Of a stretch of 64,000 nucleotides of DNA, positions 34,392-61,512 are shown one piece after another (within the stretch, counting starts at the first letter, position 1; each line of letters starts with the position of its first letter). This stretch comes from Nitrosopumilus sp. (GTDB lineage: Archaea; Thermoproteota; Nitrososphaeria; Nitrososphaerales; Nitrosopumilaceae), in assembly GCA_965219345.1 (NCBI GenBank), contig OZ244732.1, positions 1,280,001-1,344,000 on the forward strand. Direction: 5' to 3'. The position numbers and the translations under genes were made by a program. The notes under the pieces are model-generated. The model did no database searches. It was given only the letters and a program-made list of their open reading frames with translations, and had not been told where the DNA came from.

Positions 34392-34652
34392 TTGAAATTT
34401 ATGGATGACGATCAACAGAATTCTGAAATCGAGAAAATTGCAAACCTAATGATTCATGATGGCATTTCACCAGATGAACAAGATGTTACTAAATTAGAAA
34501 AATACAAAAATCAAATCAAAGAAGATTGCAATCTCGATGATGAAAAATCAATGAAGCTTGTTTATGAGACACTTCTTTACAGAAAATTAAAAAATTCCAA
34601 TTCTGGTGATATACTAGACAAAGGTAATGAGTTTGGTGCTGGTTTCAGCTAA
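34392..34652 (+). CDS. Hypothetical protein
   Basis: 86-aa ORF. Confidence 0.6.
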   Translation: MKFMDDDQQNSEIEKIANLMIHDGISPDEQDVTKLEKYKNQIKEDCNLDDEKSMKLVYETLLYRKLKNSNSGDILDKGNEFGAGFS

Positions 34653-53833: not shown

Positions 53834-54208
53834 TTAAGAATGTTTTTTTACAATTGGCAGACATGAATCTATAATTCTTAACATTTCAGTTCTTAATACT
53901 TTTTTATCAATTGCTACCCATACTCTTAATTTTTTGATGGCAAAAGAAATGGTCTGTACTTTCTTTCTTTCTTCCCAAACAAATTCAATCTCTCCTAGAT
54001 TCTTATCAAAAAATCCCTCCAGATCCGTCTTTATGGCAATATGTGAAAATTGATACTGTGTATCTTTGGCATCCAAAAGAGGTTTTAGTCCTGATCTTCT
54101 TTTATTGGCTAGTAACTCACCACTCTCATCAACTACACCTACAAATCTGACAAATGGGCTTATGTTGGATATAGAATCGCAAATTTTTTCAAAGTCATTT
54201 TTAGCCAT
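53834..54208 (-). CDS. Roadblock/DUF6659-like protein
   Basis: VRFVGVVDESGE...FDKNLGEIEF pattern. Confidence 0.6.
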   Translation of the reverse strand: MAKNDFEKICDSISNISPFVRFVGVVDESGELLANKRRSGLKPLLDAKDTQYQFSHIAIKTDLEGFFDKNLGEIEFVWEERKKVQTISFAIKKLRVWVAIDKKVLRTEMLRIIDSCLPIVKKHS

Positions 54209-54323
54209 TTAATTTACTTGCAAAAATATGATATTTTAATGATATTGCGGTAATGTATATTCTAGTTTTAATTAAAAGCCTATGGAAAACGGGGTTTTAA
54301 TAATTCAAGATCTATAATTTACT

Positions 54324-55177
54324 GTGGATCGAAGCCTTCTACTCTTTCAAAACTCTTTGAAAAGTGATGTATCTGTTTCAAACTATACACGACATTTAGA
54401 TCTATTCATGAATTTTGTAAGCAATGAAATGGACCTAAAATTAGACTATGATAGGTTATCTACAATCCCAGTTCCTCAACTTCAGATTCTTGTAGAAGAC
54501 TATGTTATGACACTAAAAGAAATTAAATCCTAATTCAATTCCAGCATACTATTATCCAATTCAATCTTTTTTTGAATCAAACGATGTTGATCTAAGGTGG
54601 AGAAAAATTAGAAAATTATTTCCTCAAAAAGTCAGTGTCTGGTGATAAACCATACACTAATGATGATATCAAAAAGATGCTAGATGTTACTCCACAACTA
54701 CGAAATAAGGCAATCATTCATTTTCTTGCATCATCTGGATGTAGATTAGGTGCATTGCCTGATCTACAACTAAGACATTTGTCTGAAATGTCTGATGGTT
54801 GTAAATCTGTTTTAGTTTATGAAGACAGCATTGAAGAATATTATACTTTCTTTACTCCTGAATCCTCAAAGTCTTTAGATGAATATTTTGAACAGAGAAA
54901 AATTGATGGTGAAGTTTTATCTGCAACAAGTCCCGTGTTTAGAAACAAGTATCTTATTGGTAATTCACCAGTAAAAGAAATGAGTGAAAAAAGTATTCAA
55001 AACGTTGTTGCTCGTGCAGTTTTAAAATCTGGAATTAGAGGTGAAGTTAAACGAAATGGAAGATATGAAAAACAAACTGATCATGCATTTAGAAAATGAT
55101 TCAATACAATATTGAAACTCAACAATGATGTAAATTCTAATGTAGTTGAAAAAATGCTTGGGCATAAAAAAGGATTA
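54324..55177 (+). pseudogene. Tyrosine integrase pseudogene
   Basis: SGCRLG, HAFRK and MLGH motifs; frameshift at about 54525, TGA at 55097-55099, cut by IS630 before the catalytic Tyr. Confidence 0.85.
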
Positions 55178-56342
55178 TACTGACGAGCAAAAGTTCATGA
55201 GATCAAACATGTTAGACGGCAACACATTTTGATCACGTCCCACTACGCATTACAATGCCCGCAGTAAAATCCGAAGACCTGAAGAAGGCGTACAAGAAGG
55301 AAAGAGATCCCAGTTGATGCTGTTGGGTTTGTTGTTGTTGTTGTTGATGACCTGAAGAAGGCGTACAAGAAGGAAAGAGATCCCAGAGTCAAGATCAGGA
55401 TGGCCGCAGTAAACATGGTGTGCATGAACAATAAGAGCATCCAGCATGCGGCAGACTCACTCATGCAGTGTCCCAACTGGGTCTCCTTCTGGGTGGAACG
55501 CTTCCGGGAGGGCGGCATCGACGCCCCCGGGATCTTCCCAAGAGCGGCAGGCCACCGAAGGTCAGGCTCGAAGACATTGAAGAGACAATATCCGGGGCAG
55601 GCAGCATCATTACTCCCCCGCAGCTGAGGGAACGTGTCCGCAAGATGCACGGCATAACATACCACATTACAAGCGCCAGGAGGATAATGCACAGGCTGGG
55701 CATGTCTGCCAAGACGGCAAGACGGGTCCACATAAACAGGCAGGGACAGACGAGATCAGAAGGTGGCAGCGCAACGCAAAGAGGCGCATATCGCGCCTGG
55801 AATCGAGGGGTTTTGCCGTCGTAGTCTTTGACGAGTCCATATTCATAGACGACCCGGCATCGGGGACAAAGTACTGGTCGCCAAAAGGCCAGCCCATAGT
55901 CACCACATACAAGGGCAGACACGGCAGGGTCGTGGCGTACGGTTCCATCGCGACTGACGGCAGGCAGTTCATCAGGGCGTACAAAAAATTTGACAAGGAG
56001 ACGGTACTGCGGTACCTAAAGGAGCTTGCGGGACATTTCGGAAAGGTTGCCATAATAATGGACAACGCGCCGCAGCACAAGGCAAAGACGGCAGGCGAGT
56101 TCCCAAAGGGCAACAAAAAAGTCAAGGCAGTATGGCTTCCAACCGCAACACCGGAGCTCAGCGTCATGGAGGAGTACTGGCACCAGTCAAAGCGCGACGT
56201 GCTGGTGTCAGAATATTATGGAACAATAGGGCAGATGCGCCGCGCAATGTCAGAGCATTTCAGGACGGCGCGGCCGTGGCTTGACGCAATGAAGTTCATC
56301 TGCAGAAAGTCATTTGATCTCAAGAACTTTTGATCGACAGTG
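55178..56342 (+). mobile_element. IS630-family insertion sequence with an inactivated transposase
   Basis: About 30-bp TIRs TACTGACGAGCAAAAGTTCATGAGATCAAA and CACTGTCGATCAAAAGTTCTTGAGATCAAA; TA on both flanks; FDES, MDNAPQH, PELSVMEEYW motifs; frameshifts plus a 73-bp insertion. Confidence 0.9.
55276..55386 (+). repeat. 38-bp duplication + 35-bp insert (spacer-integration-like scar 1)
   Basis: Copies at 55276-55313 and 55349-55386 are identical. Confidence 0.95.
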
Positions 56343-56344
56343 TA

Positions 56345-56940
56345 ATGCCCTTTGCCCTGATGCAAAATGTGCCATCAATTGATTTTCTTGAGAGTCATTA
56401 TACATTAAATTATATAATTTATGAAATGTTAAATCTAAATTATTTAGTTTTGTTAAGTATGCCCCAATGTTTCCTTCTTTAGGAATTTGAATTTCTCCAT
56501 TAATCACTTCTCTAGGATGTTTATGATAAACAAAAAGTCCTGTTTTAAGTGATAGATAATTTGACAGTCTAGATGCAGTCTTTAATGCTTCAATAATTTT
56601 TTATCACTTCCATCTGTTTTAATTGTAAATCCAGTGATTATTTTGGTGTTTTCAAGATCAAATTGTAATTCAATATCTGTTGAATTTGTAGATATCCCAG
56701 GCAACCAGACAGGTTCAATAAATTCAAAATATAATCCAACAACAACTATTACTTCTTCTTTAAAATTTACATGTTCACTTACCACAACTATTTTTACATC
56801 ATGATCACATGAAAACTATTTTACCTTTTTTCCATATTCATCAAAAAAAGTTTTTTGTAGAGTACCTTCTTTACATTCAGCACATTTTTCTTCGTTTGAT
56901 ATTGTTTTATTTTGCTGTTATTTTATTAAAAACATGATCA
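56345..56940 (-). pseudogene. Fragmented hypothetical gene
   Basis: Consecutive short ORFs in different frames, truncated at the IS630 end. Confidence 0.4.
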
Positions 56941-56962
56941 TGCACTTTAAGAAAATTTTATT

Positions 56963-57256
56963 TTATACTTTAAGAATTGCTTTTCTTAAAACTCCGCCAG
57001 TGAATATTTGATCTAATACTCCAACAATGATTACTCCTAGTACAACTTTACCAGTATTGCTTTCTGCCACATGTTTAATCAAAGAAGATGTTGATTCATG
57101 TGGATCATGCTTATCATAATGTACATTACATCTGCCTGTTTTAGGATCACATTCTGCATGATAGTGTCCTTTTCTAAAGTGAATTTTACCTAATTTTTCC
57201 CCTAAAGAACGAGTCCAGGCATGGTCATTTTCAAAATTTTCTATTCTGTATATCAT
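56963..57256 (-). CDS. Hypothetical His-rich protein with a C-terminal hydrophobic helix
   Basis: HFRKGHYHAECD...VHYDKHDPH. Confidence 0.6.
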   Translation of the reverse strand: MIYRIENFENDHAWTRSLGEKLGKIHFRKGHYHAECDPKTGRCNVHYDKHDPHESTSSLIKHVAESNTGKVVLGVIIVGVLDQIFTGGVLRKAILKV

Positions 57257-57748
57257 TTATTTACTTCTCACTTGTGAAACTTCTTCAGTTATCCATTGCC
57301 CAGATTCTTTTGTTGCAACTAGTTCAATAATTCCTCGTGTGATAGTACTTCCAATTATCCCTCCAAGTAATGCCCCAAGAAGAGTAGTTGCCAAGGCACC
57401 GCTTCCACTTCTTGAACCCGCCAGTAATCCAGCACCTCCACCTGCCATGGCAGCTTCAACAGATCTAGATGCTATCTTTGTTACTACTGCCTTTATGGCA
57501 ATTATTCCAATATCCATTAAAATTTGATCTAATTCTTGAATAAGTAATTTATCATTTCCATTTTTATATCGGACAATCAATGTAGGTTGGATCAAATTAT
57601 CTTGAATTTGAGTCTCTTTTGCAATAACGTTATCGAGTGTGCATTTTGATTTTATTCCTTTAGTTACATATTCTTCTACCGTACGACAACGTTCATCTGA
57701 AGGAATTCCAGTATAATTATTGCATTCCATTATAATCTCTTTCTTCAT
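57257..57748 (-). CDS. Glycine-zipper membrane protein
   Basis: AGGGAGLLAG...GALLGGIIGS. Confidence 0.65.
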   Translation of the reverse strand: MKKEIIMECNNYTGIPSDERCRTVEEYVTKGIKSKCTLDNVIAKETQIQDNLIQPTLIVRYKNGNDKLLIQELDQILMDIGIIAIKAVVTKIASRSVEAAMAGGGAGLLAGSRSGSGALATTLLGALLGGIIGSTITRGIIELVATKESGQWITEEVSQVRSK

Positions 57749-58365
57749 AACGTTTTCCTCCTTTCTAATATTTTTCTAATCATAACTGCATTTGGAGCTG
57801 TTGGAATGGCCATCTGGATCAAGTGTGGATGAACACTCACTGTCTGTTTTGGTATTTCAAGAGAAATTTTTTCTAATTCAGAATATAATTTCAATGCACC
57901 TTTTGCTATGTATCTTCCATCTTCTGTAAGGTAGTATTTGTCGTTAATTTTTCCAACATGCTCAGATTCAACTAGTTCTTTTAGAATATGATCTTCTCGA
58001 AGATCTATTGCAGAATCTGGATTTGTAGCATTTTTCAAAAGTATGTGGGTAAGTATCTCCTCTTCTCTGGAAACGGCAGGATAGTGACTTGTTTTAATTA
58101 TTAAATTCTGAATATGTTCTGGAAACAATGTCATACCTGTCTTTTCTTTCATTTTAATTACAGTTAGGTTATCCAGATTGGATACGTCCAAGTGTTTTCC
58201 AGAAAAGGATGATTGACTAGATTCCAGAACATGTAGAATCTTCTTTACAGTTCTAAAATTCAAATTTGCTTCTTGAGCTAGCTTGCTCAGTGAGTATGGT
58301 TTTCCAGATTCTAAAATATCCAAAATCATTTCAAGTGCTGTGGCAAAATCTGTTCGTGTTTTCAT
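57745..58365 (-). CDS. wHTH DNA-binding protein
   Basis: YSLSKLAQEANLNFRTVKKIL HTH; second wHTH-like YYLTEDG segment. Confidence 0.65.
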   Translation of the reverse strand: MKTRTDFATALEMILDILESGKPYSLSKLAQEANLNFRTVKKILHVLESSQSSFSGKHLDVSNLDNLTVIKMKEKTGMTLFPEHIQNLIIKTSHYPAVSREEEILTHILLKNATNPDSAIDLREDHILKELVESEHVGKINDKYYLTEDGRYIAKGALKLYSELEKISLEIPKQTVSVHPHLIQMAIPTAPNAVMIRKILERRKTL

Positions 58366-58366
58366 C

Positions 58367-58418
58367 TATAATTATACTAGTGTTGTATACTAATATATGA
58401 GTTGTGTATAATTATACA
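58367..58418. promoter_or_regulatory. Divergent promoter with two palindromes (TATAATTATA and TGTATAATTATACA)
   Basis: Palindromes at 58367-58376 and 58405-58418 between divergent genes. Confidence 0.5.
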
Positions 58419-58427
58419 ATATAGTGA

Positions 58428-58745
58428 ATGCCTCTCAAACCATATGAAATAGCTGTTTTGCTTCAAATGTATGATGAACGAATAATCGGACCAGGTGGGT
58501 ATACTAGTCTTCAAACCGTTCGAAGTAAGATCAACTGGAAAAAAATATCTTCTCATTATAGGGTAAAAGAAAGCTTTGACACCATAGCAAGAAGGCTAGT
58601 AAAAAAACGGTTATTATCAGATGATGGAAAAAGCCTGCAAGTTCTTTTTTTGGATAAACTTGGAGTGGATTTTGTAGTGGGCTATTTGGATGAGAATCCA
58701 AACTCTTTCAAGGATCTGGAGGATATACTTAAAGGAAAAACTTGA
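58428..58745 (+). CDS. Hypothetical protein, possible wHTH
   Basis: 105-aa ORF; RRLVKKRLL...FLDKLG. Confidence 0.55.
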   Translation: MPLKPYEIAVLLQMYDERIIGPGGYTSLQTVRSKINWKKISSHYRVKESFDTIARRLVKKRLLSDDGKSLQVLFLDKLGVDFVVGYLDENPNSFKDLEDILKGKT

Positions 58746-59064
58746 GATTTTGGTAATATGGAAAATGATGATTTGATAAACAAAGCATTTGAACACATTA
58801 AAGGAGAATTAATGATTCCTCAAATTATTAATTCATTAAAAACTAATTTTGACCTGGCGAAGTTCACATGATTCCATTCATGAATTTATTTTATTCATGG
58901 GCATGATGATCTCAAATAATTCTAATTATTCATTTAAACAAAACATGGTTTTTTTCCTTTACTGTGAAGAAATATTCTTTCTAGCTCATAGATCCTCTTT
59001 AGATGCTTTATCTGTTCATTATAATGCAGTATTTATTAATTTACGAGCAATACTTGAGCTTTTA

Positions 59065-59824
59065 ATTCAGGGAACTTTGATAATAATTGGACTCTCGAGT
59101 TTGATTGGAGTGCCGATAGGCGTGATGTCGGGAATATATCTATCTGAATATGGTGATAACAAACTTGCTAGAACAATTCGATTCTTCAATGATGTATTCA
59201 TGGAATTCCCATCAATTGTTCTTGGAATTTTTGCATTTTTGGTGATTGTATTGCTTCTTGGACACTTTTCAGTATGGGCAGGTGCTTTTGCATTATCTTT
59301 AATCATGTTTCCAATTGTTGCTAGAACTACCGAAGAACCCCTCAAGATGGTGCCAGCCGGCCTGTACCGGACGCCGCTCGTTGTCTATGACAGCTAGAAC
59401 TACCGAAGAATCCCTCAAGATGGTGCCAGTAACTCATCGTGAAGCTGGAACTGCTTTAGGTCTTAAAAAATGGGTAATTACTTTTAGAATTGTAATTTCT
59501 GCTGCAAAAAATGGAATGATCACTGGAATTTTATTATCTGTATCTAGAATCGGTGGTGAAACTGCCCCATTAATTATGACTATCTTGGGCAGTAGTCAAT
59601 TCTTTAGCAGTATGGATGTACCAATGGATGCTTTTCCATTGAGAATTTGGAGATTATCTTTATTGCCATATGATAGTGCACAGCTTCCGGGTTGGGGTTC
59701 AGCACTAGTTCTAATCTTCATCATTCTAGGAATTAATCTTGCTGTTAGATACTTTTTTGCAAACAAGAAAAGGAAAAATGGAATTTTTGGGCAATTAATC
59801 AAAGGAGTTAGAGCTAAAAATTGA
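59065..59824 (+). pseudogene. pstA: Phosphate ABC permease PstA, 5' deleted and interrupted
   Basis: GIYLSEY, PSIVLG, REAGTALG, RIGGETAP; 73-bp insertion at 59320-59429; 5' end fused to island DNA. Confidence 0.92.
59320..59429 (+). repeat. 37-bp duplication + 36-bp insert (spacer-integration-like scar 2)
   Basis: Copies at 59320-59356 and 59393-59429, one mismatch. Confidence 0.95.
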
Positions 59825-60719
59825 CGGCGCTAAGTACATCTGCTAACATGGAAACACAGGCAAAATCGGTTCCACCTAAAATTGATTCTGAAAAATACAA
59901 AATGATTGCAGAAAATGTCACTATAAGTTATGATGGAATTGAAGCTGTCAAAAATGTCACAATGAAATTCAAAGAAAGATCAGTCACTGCTTTGATAGCC
60001 GATTCTGTGGGCATCTGCGAGGTTGGATTTTAATGAAATTCAAAGAAAGATCAGTCACTGCTTTGATAGGGCCATCTGGTTGTGGGAAAACAACATTTCT
60101 TCGATGTCTTAATCGAATGCACGATATGACAAAAAATGCAAGAGTTGATGGAAAAGTTATGATTGATGATATTGATCTTTATGATAAATCAGTTGATCCT
60201 ATCTATCATCGCAGAAAAGTAGGCATGGTTTTCCAAAAACCAAACCCGTTTCCAACCATGTCAATTTATGATAATGTTATTGCAGGTTTGAAACTTAATG
60301 GAGTCCGAGATAAAAAAATTCTAGATGAGATTGTCGAAGACTCATTGAAGATGGCATATCTTTGGGATGAAGTAAAACATGATTTGAAAAAATCCGCAAT
60401 TGAATTATCTGGTGGTCAGCAACAACGTTTATGCATTGCAAGAGCCCTTGCTATCCAACCTGAAGTTTTGCTAATGGATGAACCTGCATCTGCACTTGAT
60501 CCAATCGCAACTCAAAAAATTGAAGAAACAATTGCCGAATTAAAAAAAGAGTATACCATAATTATTGTAACTCATAATATGCAACAGGCAGTACGTGTTT
60601 CAGATTATACTGGATTCATGTATCTGGGTGACTTGTTGAATTTAGAGAAACAAAGAAGCTATTCACTGATCCAAAAAATGAATTAACTGCAAAATATGTT
60701 CAGGGGGCAATTTGGATAA
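59821..60719 (+). pseudogene. pstB: Phosphate ABC ATPase PstB, interrupted and frameshifted
   Basis: [23 protein letters not shown]; 71-bp insertion plus frameshifts near 60635 and 60705. Confidence 0.92.
59961..60069 (+). repeat. 38-bp duplication + 33-bp insert (spacer-integration-like scar 3)
   Basis: Copies at 59961-59998 and 60032-60069 are identical. Confidence 0.95.
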
Positions 60720-61375
60720 TGACAAGACTGATTGCTCCTTCCCTTGAAAAATTATCTCAAATAATGTCTGAGATGGGAGATGCTGCAATAGAATGTATTT
60801 CATTAGCTGTTGATTCCTACCTTGAAGGGAAAAATACTACTAATCAAGTTCATGAACTATCTGATTCAATTCGCAACAAGTACTTTGAAGTCGAAGACTT
60901 GATTTTTGATATGCTTTTGAAATATCAACCAGTAGCTGATGATTTTAGAATGATTCGCTCTTCTACTGAAATATCATATGCATTTTCAAGATTTGGAAGA
61001 TATGCCTATGACATTACACAAGTACGAGACTTGTTTGGTGATATTTCTGAATGTACAAATGCATCACTGTTTGAAATAACAAAAAAAGTGAAACACATGA
61101 TCAAAGAAGCTATTCTCTCTTTTGCAGAACTAGATGTTAGAAAAGCTGTAAAAATTCAAGAAGATGAAGCATTCATTGATAAAATATACAAAGAAAGACT
61201 GACAAAACTAATAGAGTCTAATAATACTAAATATGCATTAGCTGAAGCATTGCTCTTGAGGTATCTTGAAAGAATTGGAGACCATGCAGTTTTCATGAGT
61301 GATGCCATTAACTATATCGTTACAGGAAAACACAAACCAAGCGAAAAAAGAATAACATCTCATACAAAACCCTGA
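60719..61375 (+). CDS. phoU: Phosphate uptake regulator PhoU
   Basis: YQPVADDFR, YLERIGDHA; follows pstB. Confidence 0.9.
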   Translation: MTRLIAPSLEKLSQIMSEMGDAAIECISLAVDSYLEGKNTTNQVHELSDSIRNKYFEVEDLIFDMLLKYQPVADDFRMIRSSTEISYAFSRFGRYAYDITQVRDLFGDISECTNASLFEITKKVKHMIKEAILSFAELDVRKAVKIQEDEAFIDKIYKERLTKLIESNNTKYALAEALLLRYLERIGDHAVFMSDAINYIVTGKHKPSEKRITSHTKP

Positions 61376-61512
61376 TTATGTGGGAGCATATGTTTTACAA
61401 CTAGTCTCCATGTAGATCTATGTAAAATATCAAAAATACCATCATGAATCTTATCATTCTCATATTCTAATTACATGGTGTCTTGATGCCCTCACCAAGT
61501 CTGGAGCGAAAT

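Follow-up and report, generated by a model that had tools for sequence, protein, structure and literature searches.

What created three places in the chromosome of a Nitrosopumilus species at which a short piece of an ordinary gene occurs twice, with an unrelated fragment of similar length between the two copies? These places, called scars below, lie within 5 kb of one another in the window, by which we mean the whole 64,000-nt stretch of DNA analyzed here (C1:1280001–1344000 of the source genome, G000; positions with the prefix C1 refer to its contig and those without a prefix to the window). The initial annotation had attributed them to off-target adaptation by an enzyme of a CRISPR system. 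Our analysis indicates, with a probability of about 0.9, that the three scars and about 26 more in the same genome arose by off-target integration by the genome's own type I-G CRISPR-associated (Cas) proteins, Cas4/Cas1-Cas2. We infer this agent and its chemistry from the anatomy of the scars, the match of their lengths to the native array, the empty sites, the inserts derived from the chromosome itself, and the co-occurrence of scars with type I-G systems in relatives.

A direct-repeat search of positions 54000–61500 yielded exactly three repeat families, which are scars 1, 2, and 3, and their coordinates, lengths, and periods (table) were the same as those originally described. The reported maximal matches of 38, 37, and 38 bp were confirmed in length, but the 37-nt match of scar 2 holds one mismatch: its copies differ at one internal base, C versus T. 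Because the relatives have T at this position, the second copy is the ancestral one. In scar 1, three placements of a 36-nt unit fit equally well. Reading of the window sequence confirmed AG as the + strand ending of each of the three units. The inserts had been called unrelated, and they showed no match among themselves, with the spacers of the native array, or elsewhere in the genome. Chance cannot be the source of exact 36–38-mers at one offset within 64 kb.

Empty alleles, proposed earlier as a check, were found for all three scars, either in congeners or in paralogues of an insertion sequence (IS). The site of scar 1 is empty in four IS630 paralogues of the same genome, which are 93–99% identical, because the alignments on either side of the scar overlap by one unit. 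The two full-length IS630 paralogues examined have a single 348-aa transposase frame across this site, and the window copy is broken. When positions 58850–60700 were compared with 31 genomes (G000 and 30 relatives), the alignments were interrupted exactly at scars 2 and 3, and a single unit without insert was present at both sites in six of six aligned congeneric loci (L006–L011). These six, of 11 loci from relatives, belong to the same genus and are 81–86% identical in the pstB part; L012, with a contig end inside it, and the more distant L013–L016 were left out. Removal in silico of one unit and the insert gave an open frame of 303 aa (PstA-like) at scar 2 and one of 265 aa (PstB-like) at scar 3, which bears out the claim that such a deletion restores the reading frame. 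The lengths added by these two scars, 73 and 71 nt, are not divisible by three. Each scar of the window is an insertion plus a target duplication.

To place these scars in the genome (1.91 Mb, 36% guanine plus cytosine [GC], two contigs), we searched it for direct repeats at offsets of 35–139, with mismatches allowed. Pairs less than 300 bp from other repeats and the CRISPR array itself were left out, and the pairs at C1:605008–605120, 1168748, 1482757, 1778712–1778880, and 1780170 were dropped as tandem protein repeats. Fifty-one isolated pairs were obtained over periods of 35–139, and 29 of them form a sharp peak at periods of 70, 71, 72, 73, 74, 75, and 76 (one, four, five, nine, six, three, and one scars, respectively), which corresponds to a density of about 15 scars per Mb. 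The scars at C1:37490 and 243305 have an identical unit and insert and represent one event copied with a repeated host element, and the number of independent events is therefore 28. In a 36-nt window, the two copies are identical at 36 positions in 16 of the independent scars, at 35 in eight, at 34 in three, and at 33 in one. The maximal exact matches are most often 36 nt (nine scars, the mode), followed by 37 nt (four), 38 nt (three), 35 nt (two), and 33 nt (two), and nine scars have internal mismatches; the 37- and 38-nt matches are expected from chance identity of flanking bases. The inserts are 33–40 nt long genome-wide, and 34–40 nt when the unit is taken as 36 nt at periods of 70–76. Thus, the spread of lengths, which the initial annotation had suggested plotting, is narrow. 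None of the 29 scars contains a second insert, every one consisting of two unit copies only, and the suggested seeding of new arrays was thus not observed.

A smaller second mode was observed at periods of 64–68, with units of about 30–36 nt, inserts of about 29–34 nt, and mostly more mismatches (table). One pair of this mode, at C1:1448836, is a genuine insertion when compared with an empty paralogue of 100% identity at C1:333005–333120. The repeated element that it struck is the one also hit by the 74-nt scar at C1:404166, at an offset of about 9 nt.

The unit copies differ at 17 of 1008 positions (28 × 36) in G000, as against a difference of about 15% in pstB from the nearest species, and it follows that every scar postdates the splits between species. 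This young age agrees with the empty sites. Further scars with empty paralogous sites are those at C1:37490/243305, 92343, 333438, 404166, 919312, and 1503080. The scars are real and of different ages.

An intact type I-G (I-U) CRISPR-Cas locus is located about 300 kb from the window. A 561-aa Cas4/Cas1 fusion (NF049935, cas4g_cas1g), which scores 754 bits at a cut-off of 560, is encoded there ahead of Cas2; then come a leader of about 175 nt and an array with 164 repeats of ATTTCCATAACGAAAAAGTTATGGCCCCATTGAAGC, 36 nt in length. On the far side of the array are Cas7 of the GSU0053 family (Cas7g), two proteins without a Pfam family, and Cas3 with a C-terminal HD domain. The 163 spacers are 35 (eight), 36 (37), 37 (35), 38 (34), 39 (23), 40 (13), or more (13) nt long, 150 of them falling in the range of 35–40 nt. 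Since the repeat is 36 nt and these spacers 35–40 nt, the periods of the array are 71–76, and all related I-G arrays that were recovered in full likewise have 36-nt repeats and periods of 71–76. The duplication length of the scars equals that of the native repeat, and their insert lengths lie within the spacer range. The comparison with a true array that had been called for therefore came out in favor of a cognate system, the array adjoining an intact adaptation module; the system is of type I-G with 36-nt repeats and not, as first supposed, one of type I-B, I-D, or III with 37-nt repeats.

Cas1 (PF01867) is present at two places in this genome. The second is a Cas1-like fragment (locus L002), an 83-aa frame corresponding to the C-terminal part of PF01867, with neither an array nor long open reading frames near it. 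A lost system or a casposon probably left this remnant.

According to the mechanism that we propose, Cas4/Cas1-Cas2 would load a prespacer of about 35–40 bp from foreign or chromosomal DNA. The two 3′ ends of the prespacer would be joined to a non-CRISPR target, one to each strand and with 36 bp between them, as on the cognate repeat, and gap repair would double the 36-bp target to give unit-insert-unit. Target choice would be loose, each of the two nicks being guided by a symmetric, weakly preferred half-site with T at +2, G at +4, and a base other than T at +1. Because the units are unrelated in sequence, the 36-bp spacing would be set by the complex and not by the repeat sequence. As their units have no sequence in common, the products are not CRISPR arrays, and self-derived inserts would therefore be tolerated in them. 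Bona fide CRISPR arrays have a conserved repeat, three or more repeats, and a leader; the units of the scars are unrelated and have two copies each. IS elements and casposons have conserved ends, their own transposase or casposase, and a short duplication; the inserts of the scars are all different and only 33–40 nt long. A target duplication of an IS or casposon was accordingly ruled out on the basis of the 36-nt duplication and the unrelated inserts, which carry no gene.

The origin of the inserts was examined next to that of the array spacers. Seven of the 28 independent inserts have full-length chromosomal matches (32–39 nt) to single-copy sites, six of them exact and one with one mismatch (table), and an eighth partially matches a repeated gene family. 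In contrast, full-length matches outside the array are absent for all 163 array spacers (Fisher's test, p = 7e-7). This difference is expected if the scars are an unselected sample of the captures made by the integrase and the real array has been purged of self-targeting guides. The earlier proposal that an integrase has been inserting foreign fragments across the chromosome thus stands for the genome-wide extent, with 29 scars, but about one-quarter of the inserts are self DNA. Three of the seven sources (C1:523291, 561910, and 575144) are located within 52 kb of orc1/cdc6, and cumulative GC skew peaks near 590 kb, with a minimum near 1550 kb. The clustering of sources by orc1/cdc6 (P = 0.005 for a fixed point, 0.07 for any cluster) is a hint that capture favors the region of the replication origin. 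A search of 121 genomes of the genus, with G000 among them, found no protospacers of the array spacers; the three non-array matches that were followed proved to be solitary, near-perfect I-G repeats (G017:C1:1535361–1535404, G115:C1:2066163–2066197, and G094:C1:1629273–1629313), the first of them in a genome without full-length Cas4g/Cas1g.

Fourteen scars with unambiguous 36-nt boundaries provided 28 half-sites, which were read inward from each nick. Only one half-site had T at +1, 16 had T at +2, and 19 had G at +4 (p = 9e-9 versus genome composition), and positions +6 to +9 were A-rich. The AG at the unit ends, to which the initial annotation had drawn attention, is the complement of half-site positions +1 and +2 and therefore belongs to a symmetric half-site. 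The overall likeness of the units to the native repeat is slight (mean best 12.5/36 versus 10.9/36 for random 36-mers), and the former value, being the best of up to three offsets for 13 scars, is biased upwards and was not relied on. Among the scars of relatives, the strict 36-nt criterion retained one of 12.

Cas4g/Cas1g scored above the cut-off in five of 61 sampled genomes of the genus, including G000. We scanned the first 396.2 kb of five relatives by the method used for G000. Isolated pairs with periods of 70–76 numbered five and seven in the two relatives with I-G (G051 and G009) and zero, one, and zero in the three without a Cas4g/Cas1g match (G072, G002, and G059); slices of 396.2 kb of G000 contained eight, six, six, eight, and one pairs. 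As far as five kin genomes go, the scars follow the I-G system within the genus.

Several observations weigh against the assignment of the scars to Cas4/Cas1-Cas2. The scars are known from assembled sequence alone, and the five sampled relatives are kin and not independent of one another. One of the relatives without a Cas4g/Cas1g match, with a GC content of 53%, has an isolated pair (G002:C1:106317) that repeats at a period of 72 and has a unit of about 36 nt; this pair may be left over from a lost system or be due to chance. The mode at periods of 64–68 is not accounted for by the spacer lengths of the array, its inserts being too short. The ends of the native repeat, ATTT and GCTT, fit the half-site at +1 and partly at +2 but mismatch it at +4; the target preference is therefore not mere likeness to the repeat, and the comparison of target ends recommended in the initial annotation yielded disagreement at this position. 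The signal of a protospacer-adjacent motif (PAM) is weak, TTN being found upstream of two of eight self protospacers in either orientation when the flanks were read by hand. Finally, the sources of the window inserts were not found, either for all three in their own genome, for inserts 2 and 3 in 31 genomes (G000 included) and, as exact matches, in IMG/VR viral contigs, or for insert 2 in metagenome contigs of the Joint Genome Institute (JGI), and a 42-nt pstB junction string matched no metagenome contig in its empty or filled form.

We considered four other explanations, which even taken together are unlikely. A different integrase or mobile element making cuts staggered by 36 bp, whose agreement with the CRISPR repeat length would be coincidental, could explain the departure from the native repeat at +4 and the pair in G002, and the degraded second Cas1 fragment at C1:1123019–1123234 might be taken as a trace of such an enzyme. 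However, this fragment is a remnant of 83 aa that lacks a neighboring array, and inserts that are mutually unrelated, spacer-sized, partly copied from the chromosome, and too short for any gene, such as a transposase, are unlike those of a transposon. As both the duplication and insert lengths agree with the cognate array and the scars co-occur with I-G in the sampled relatives, we regard this explanation as very unlikely. It is still harder to believe that the duplications were made by long-read metagenome assembly or consensus calling. The genome is probably metagenome-assembled, but an artefact of this kind would not mirror the 36-nt repeat and 34–40-nt spacer lengths of the genome's own array, copy inserts from distant single-copy genes, gain mismatches between copies, or be duplicated together with a host element, nor would it be as rare as zero, one, and zero cases in three single-contig congeners without I-G.

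Break repair can yield direct repeats with filler sequence, and replication slippage or such repair would therefore give structures of the same general form. These processes are expected to produce broad distributions of duplication and filler lengths and no tie to the presence of I-G, whereas the scars have a 36-nt mode and periods of 70–76; their contribution is accordingly judged extremely improbable. The same holds for selection of the scars as functional mini-arrays or regulatory elements. The 75-nt insertion at C1:88227, which is in frame and leaves a giant surface-protein gene open, would fit a functional role, but the units share no sequence and have only a slight likeness to the native repeat, no scar has more than one insert, most scars frameshift the host gene or sit in decayed DNA, and inserts directed against primase and Cdc48 would be lethal as guides. 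Off-target integration by the native Cas4/Cas1-Cas2 is therefore the explanation that we retain.

The genes hit include those for PstA-like and PstB-like proteins, a UDP-glucose/GDP-mannose dehydrogenase, an FMN reductase, IS630 and IS1595 transposases, an HNH endonuclease, an fn3/Big_9 surface protein, and the giant surface protein. The PstA, PstB, dehydrogenase, FMN reductase, and transposase genes are broken, which supports the original claim that the events inactivate genes. The dehydrogenase gene is cleanly split inside its central domain. Scars whose added length is not a multiple of three frameshift the genes that they hit, and in the majority of cases either the host gene is frameshifted or the DNA was already decayed; some scars are located at gene ends. 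The giant gene carries a second scar at its 5′ end (C1:92343). The scars are clustered (seven adjacent gaps of less than 6 kb versus 2.3 expected, P = 0.004), and the local GC fraction is 0.395 versus 0.360 for the genome. Clustering and higher GC may stem from the survival of scars in dispensable DNA and not from targeting.

In the window, an intact phoU comes after the two pst-like genes. Relatives show homology to the PstA-like gene only from about position 59064 (query position 215) onward, the first approximately 75 codons of its frame (58849–59064) have no counterpart in the pst loci of relatives, and the search of 31 genomes revealed neither pstC nor pstS homology upstream of it. The pst operon may have been truncated before scars 2 and 3 arrived.

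Table. Positions of the scars, their host genes, and related features (window coordinates, or genome coordinates where a contig is named)
Feature	Position	Strand	Description
Scar 1 repeat pair	55273–55313 and 55346–55386		41 nt with 1 mismatch; exact core 38 nt; period 73
Scar 1, unit copy 1	55276–55313	none	38-nt exact match; probable true unit 36 nt
Scar 1, insert	55314–55348		35 nt between maximal matches, 37 nt for a 36-nt unit; spacer-like
Scar 1, unit copy 2	55349–55386	none	38-nt exact match
Scar 2, unit copy 1	59320–59356	none	37 nt, 1 derived mismatch; period 73
Scar 2, insert	59357–59392		36 nt; 64% GC
Scar 2, unit copy 2	59393–59429	none	Ancestral sequence, same as in relatives
Scar 3, unit copy 1	59961–59998	none	38-nt exact match; period 71
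Scar 3, insert	59999–60031		33 nt between maximal matches, 35 nt for a 36-nt unit
Scar 3, unit copy 2	60032–60069	none	38-nt exact match
IS630-family element	55180–56344	+	HTH_33 and DDE_3 fragments; scar 1 near 5′ end of transposase frame
PstA-like ATP-binding cassette (ABC) permease gene	58849–59824	+	BPD_transp_1; split by scar 2 (+73 nt) into two open frames
PstB-like ABC ATPase gene	59821–60686	+	5′ end severed by scar 3 (+71 nt)
Giant open frame	C1:82227–92351		At least 3350 aa; matches to SGL/lactonase beta-propeller and SWM repeat
Insert source			Junction of primase small- and large-subunit genes
Insert source			Cdc48
Insert source			AT-rich stretch 43 nt upstream of orc1/cdc6
Insert source			NuoL/Mrp-type antiporter subunit
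Insert source			HEAT-repeat protein
Insert source			ArsR-type regulator
Insert source	C1:1636412		Methyltransferase gene 3 kb upstream of cas4/cas1
Pairs with periods of 64–68	C1: 431953, 1251065, 1265409, 1448836, 1483337, 1573079, 1573487, 1824847, 1826938		G000, outside the window
Scars with a mismatch 3 nt from unit end	G000 C1: 333438, 429362; G009: 34474, 41414, 186739; G051: 141733, 281500		

The mismatches between unit copies gather exactly 3 nt from one end of the unit, and the two terminal bases match. Five of the 13 mismatches in the nine scars with unique placement sit at this distance. For the scar at C1:333438, which two paralogues served to polarize, the unit end adjoining the insert holds the derived base (n = 1). 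A homologue for polarizing the G009 scar at 34474, a site that adjoins a multicopy IS, was not found elsewhere. A mismatch at this distance may reflect an error at the end of gap filling.

Another scar, at C1:1638625, sits at the 3′ end of a nucleoside 2-deoxyribosyltransferase-like gene and is some 950 bp upstream of cas4/cas1. With the insert source at C1:1636412, both capture and integration occur near the cas locus.

These results suggest that the machinery of immune adaptation doubles as a natural mutagen, and the genomic cost of an active adaptation module becomes measurable through the genes that it breaks. The scars offer a rare view of integrase captures before interference purges self DNA (25% self in the scars versus 0% in the array) and dozens of natural targets from which to learn what Cas4/Cas1-Cas2 recognizes without leader and repeat. 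CRISPR finders will list the scars as two-repeat arrays, and gene callers will list their hosts as split genes. A broader interpretation, which we put forward only tentatively and consider doubtful as a whole, is that I-G off-target integration is a chronic, lineage-wide mutagenic process operating at about 15 scars per Mb, that the scars form an archive of naive capture unpurged by interference, in which self DNA comes preferentially from around the origin and the cas locus, and that the knock-outs are reversible. A scar could be removed precisely by recombination or slippage because it is bracketed by 36-bp direct repeats, and such removal, if it occurs, would account for the reversibility.

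Full-text literature searches returned no report of natural genome-wide off-target integration or of such integration in Nitrosopumilus. The scars resemble the products of IS elements and casposons in that a direct target duplication surrounds inserted DNA through staggered strand transfer. The target-site duplications of those elements are about 2–15 bp, whereas the scars have a 36-bp duplication, and their 33–40-nt fragments differ from scar to scar, share no ends, and carry no gene. Demonstrations of off-target CRISPR adaptation have come mainly from over-expressed Cas1-Cas2 of Escherichia coli, in which the duplication reportedly equals one repeat length.

Passages citing the E. coli work (Nivala, Shipman and Church 2018, Nat Microbiol) state that overproduced type I-E Cas1-Cas2 integrates off target and can spawn neo-CRISPR arrays, and describe the evidence for off-target integration in two other species as circumstantial (10.1101/148544, PMC7054753, PMC6698737, PMC9456107). 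As described there, a spacer-sized fragment enters outside the array and creates a new repeat-spacer-repeat unit, as in the scars; those experiments employed over-expressed Cas1-Cas2, supplied oligonucleotides, and a laboratory strain, whereas the present events are natural and involve an I-G Cas4/Cas1 fusion in an archaeon of an uncultured type. Cas1-Cas2 of Pyrococcus furiosus integrates in vitro at non-CRISPR sites that share repeat-like features, and the authors propose that off-target sites show context-independent determinants (PMC6698737). That system belongs to another subtype with a 30-nt repeat and was studied on plasmids, and the half-site found here departs from the native repeat at +4. 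The I-G Cas4/Cas1-Cas2 of Geobacter sulfurreducens (Almendros et al. 2019) is of the same protein family, NF049935, and its study scored only integration into the array (PMC6547450). That work gave a predominant spacer length of about 36 bp, about 70% of unique spacers matching the plasmid and a minority the chromosome in naive acquisition, and a TTN PAM for at least 50% of unique spacers, as compared with two of eight self protospacers here (PMC6547450). Compared with the E. coli I-E system, the scars reach about 15 per Mb, inactivate identifiable genes, carry self DNA in one-quarter of their inserts, and have in no case grown into an array. The reaction itself is known; what is new is that it is natural, frequent, and gene-breaking, that it belongs to a type I-G archaeal system, and that its target preference departs from the repeat.

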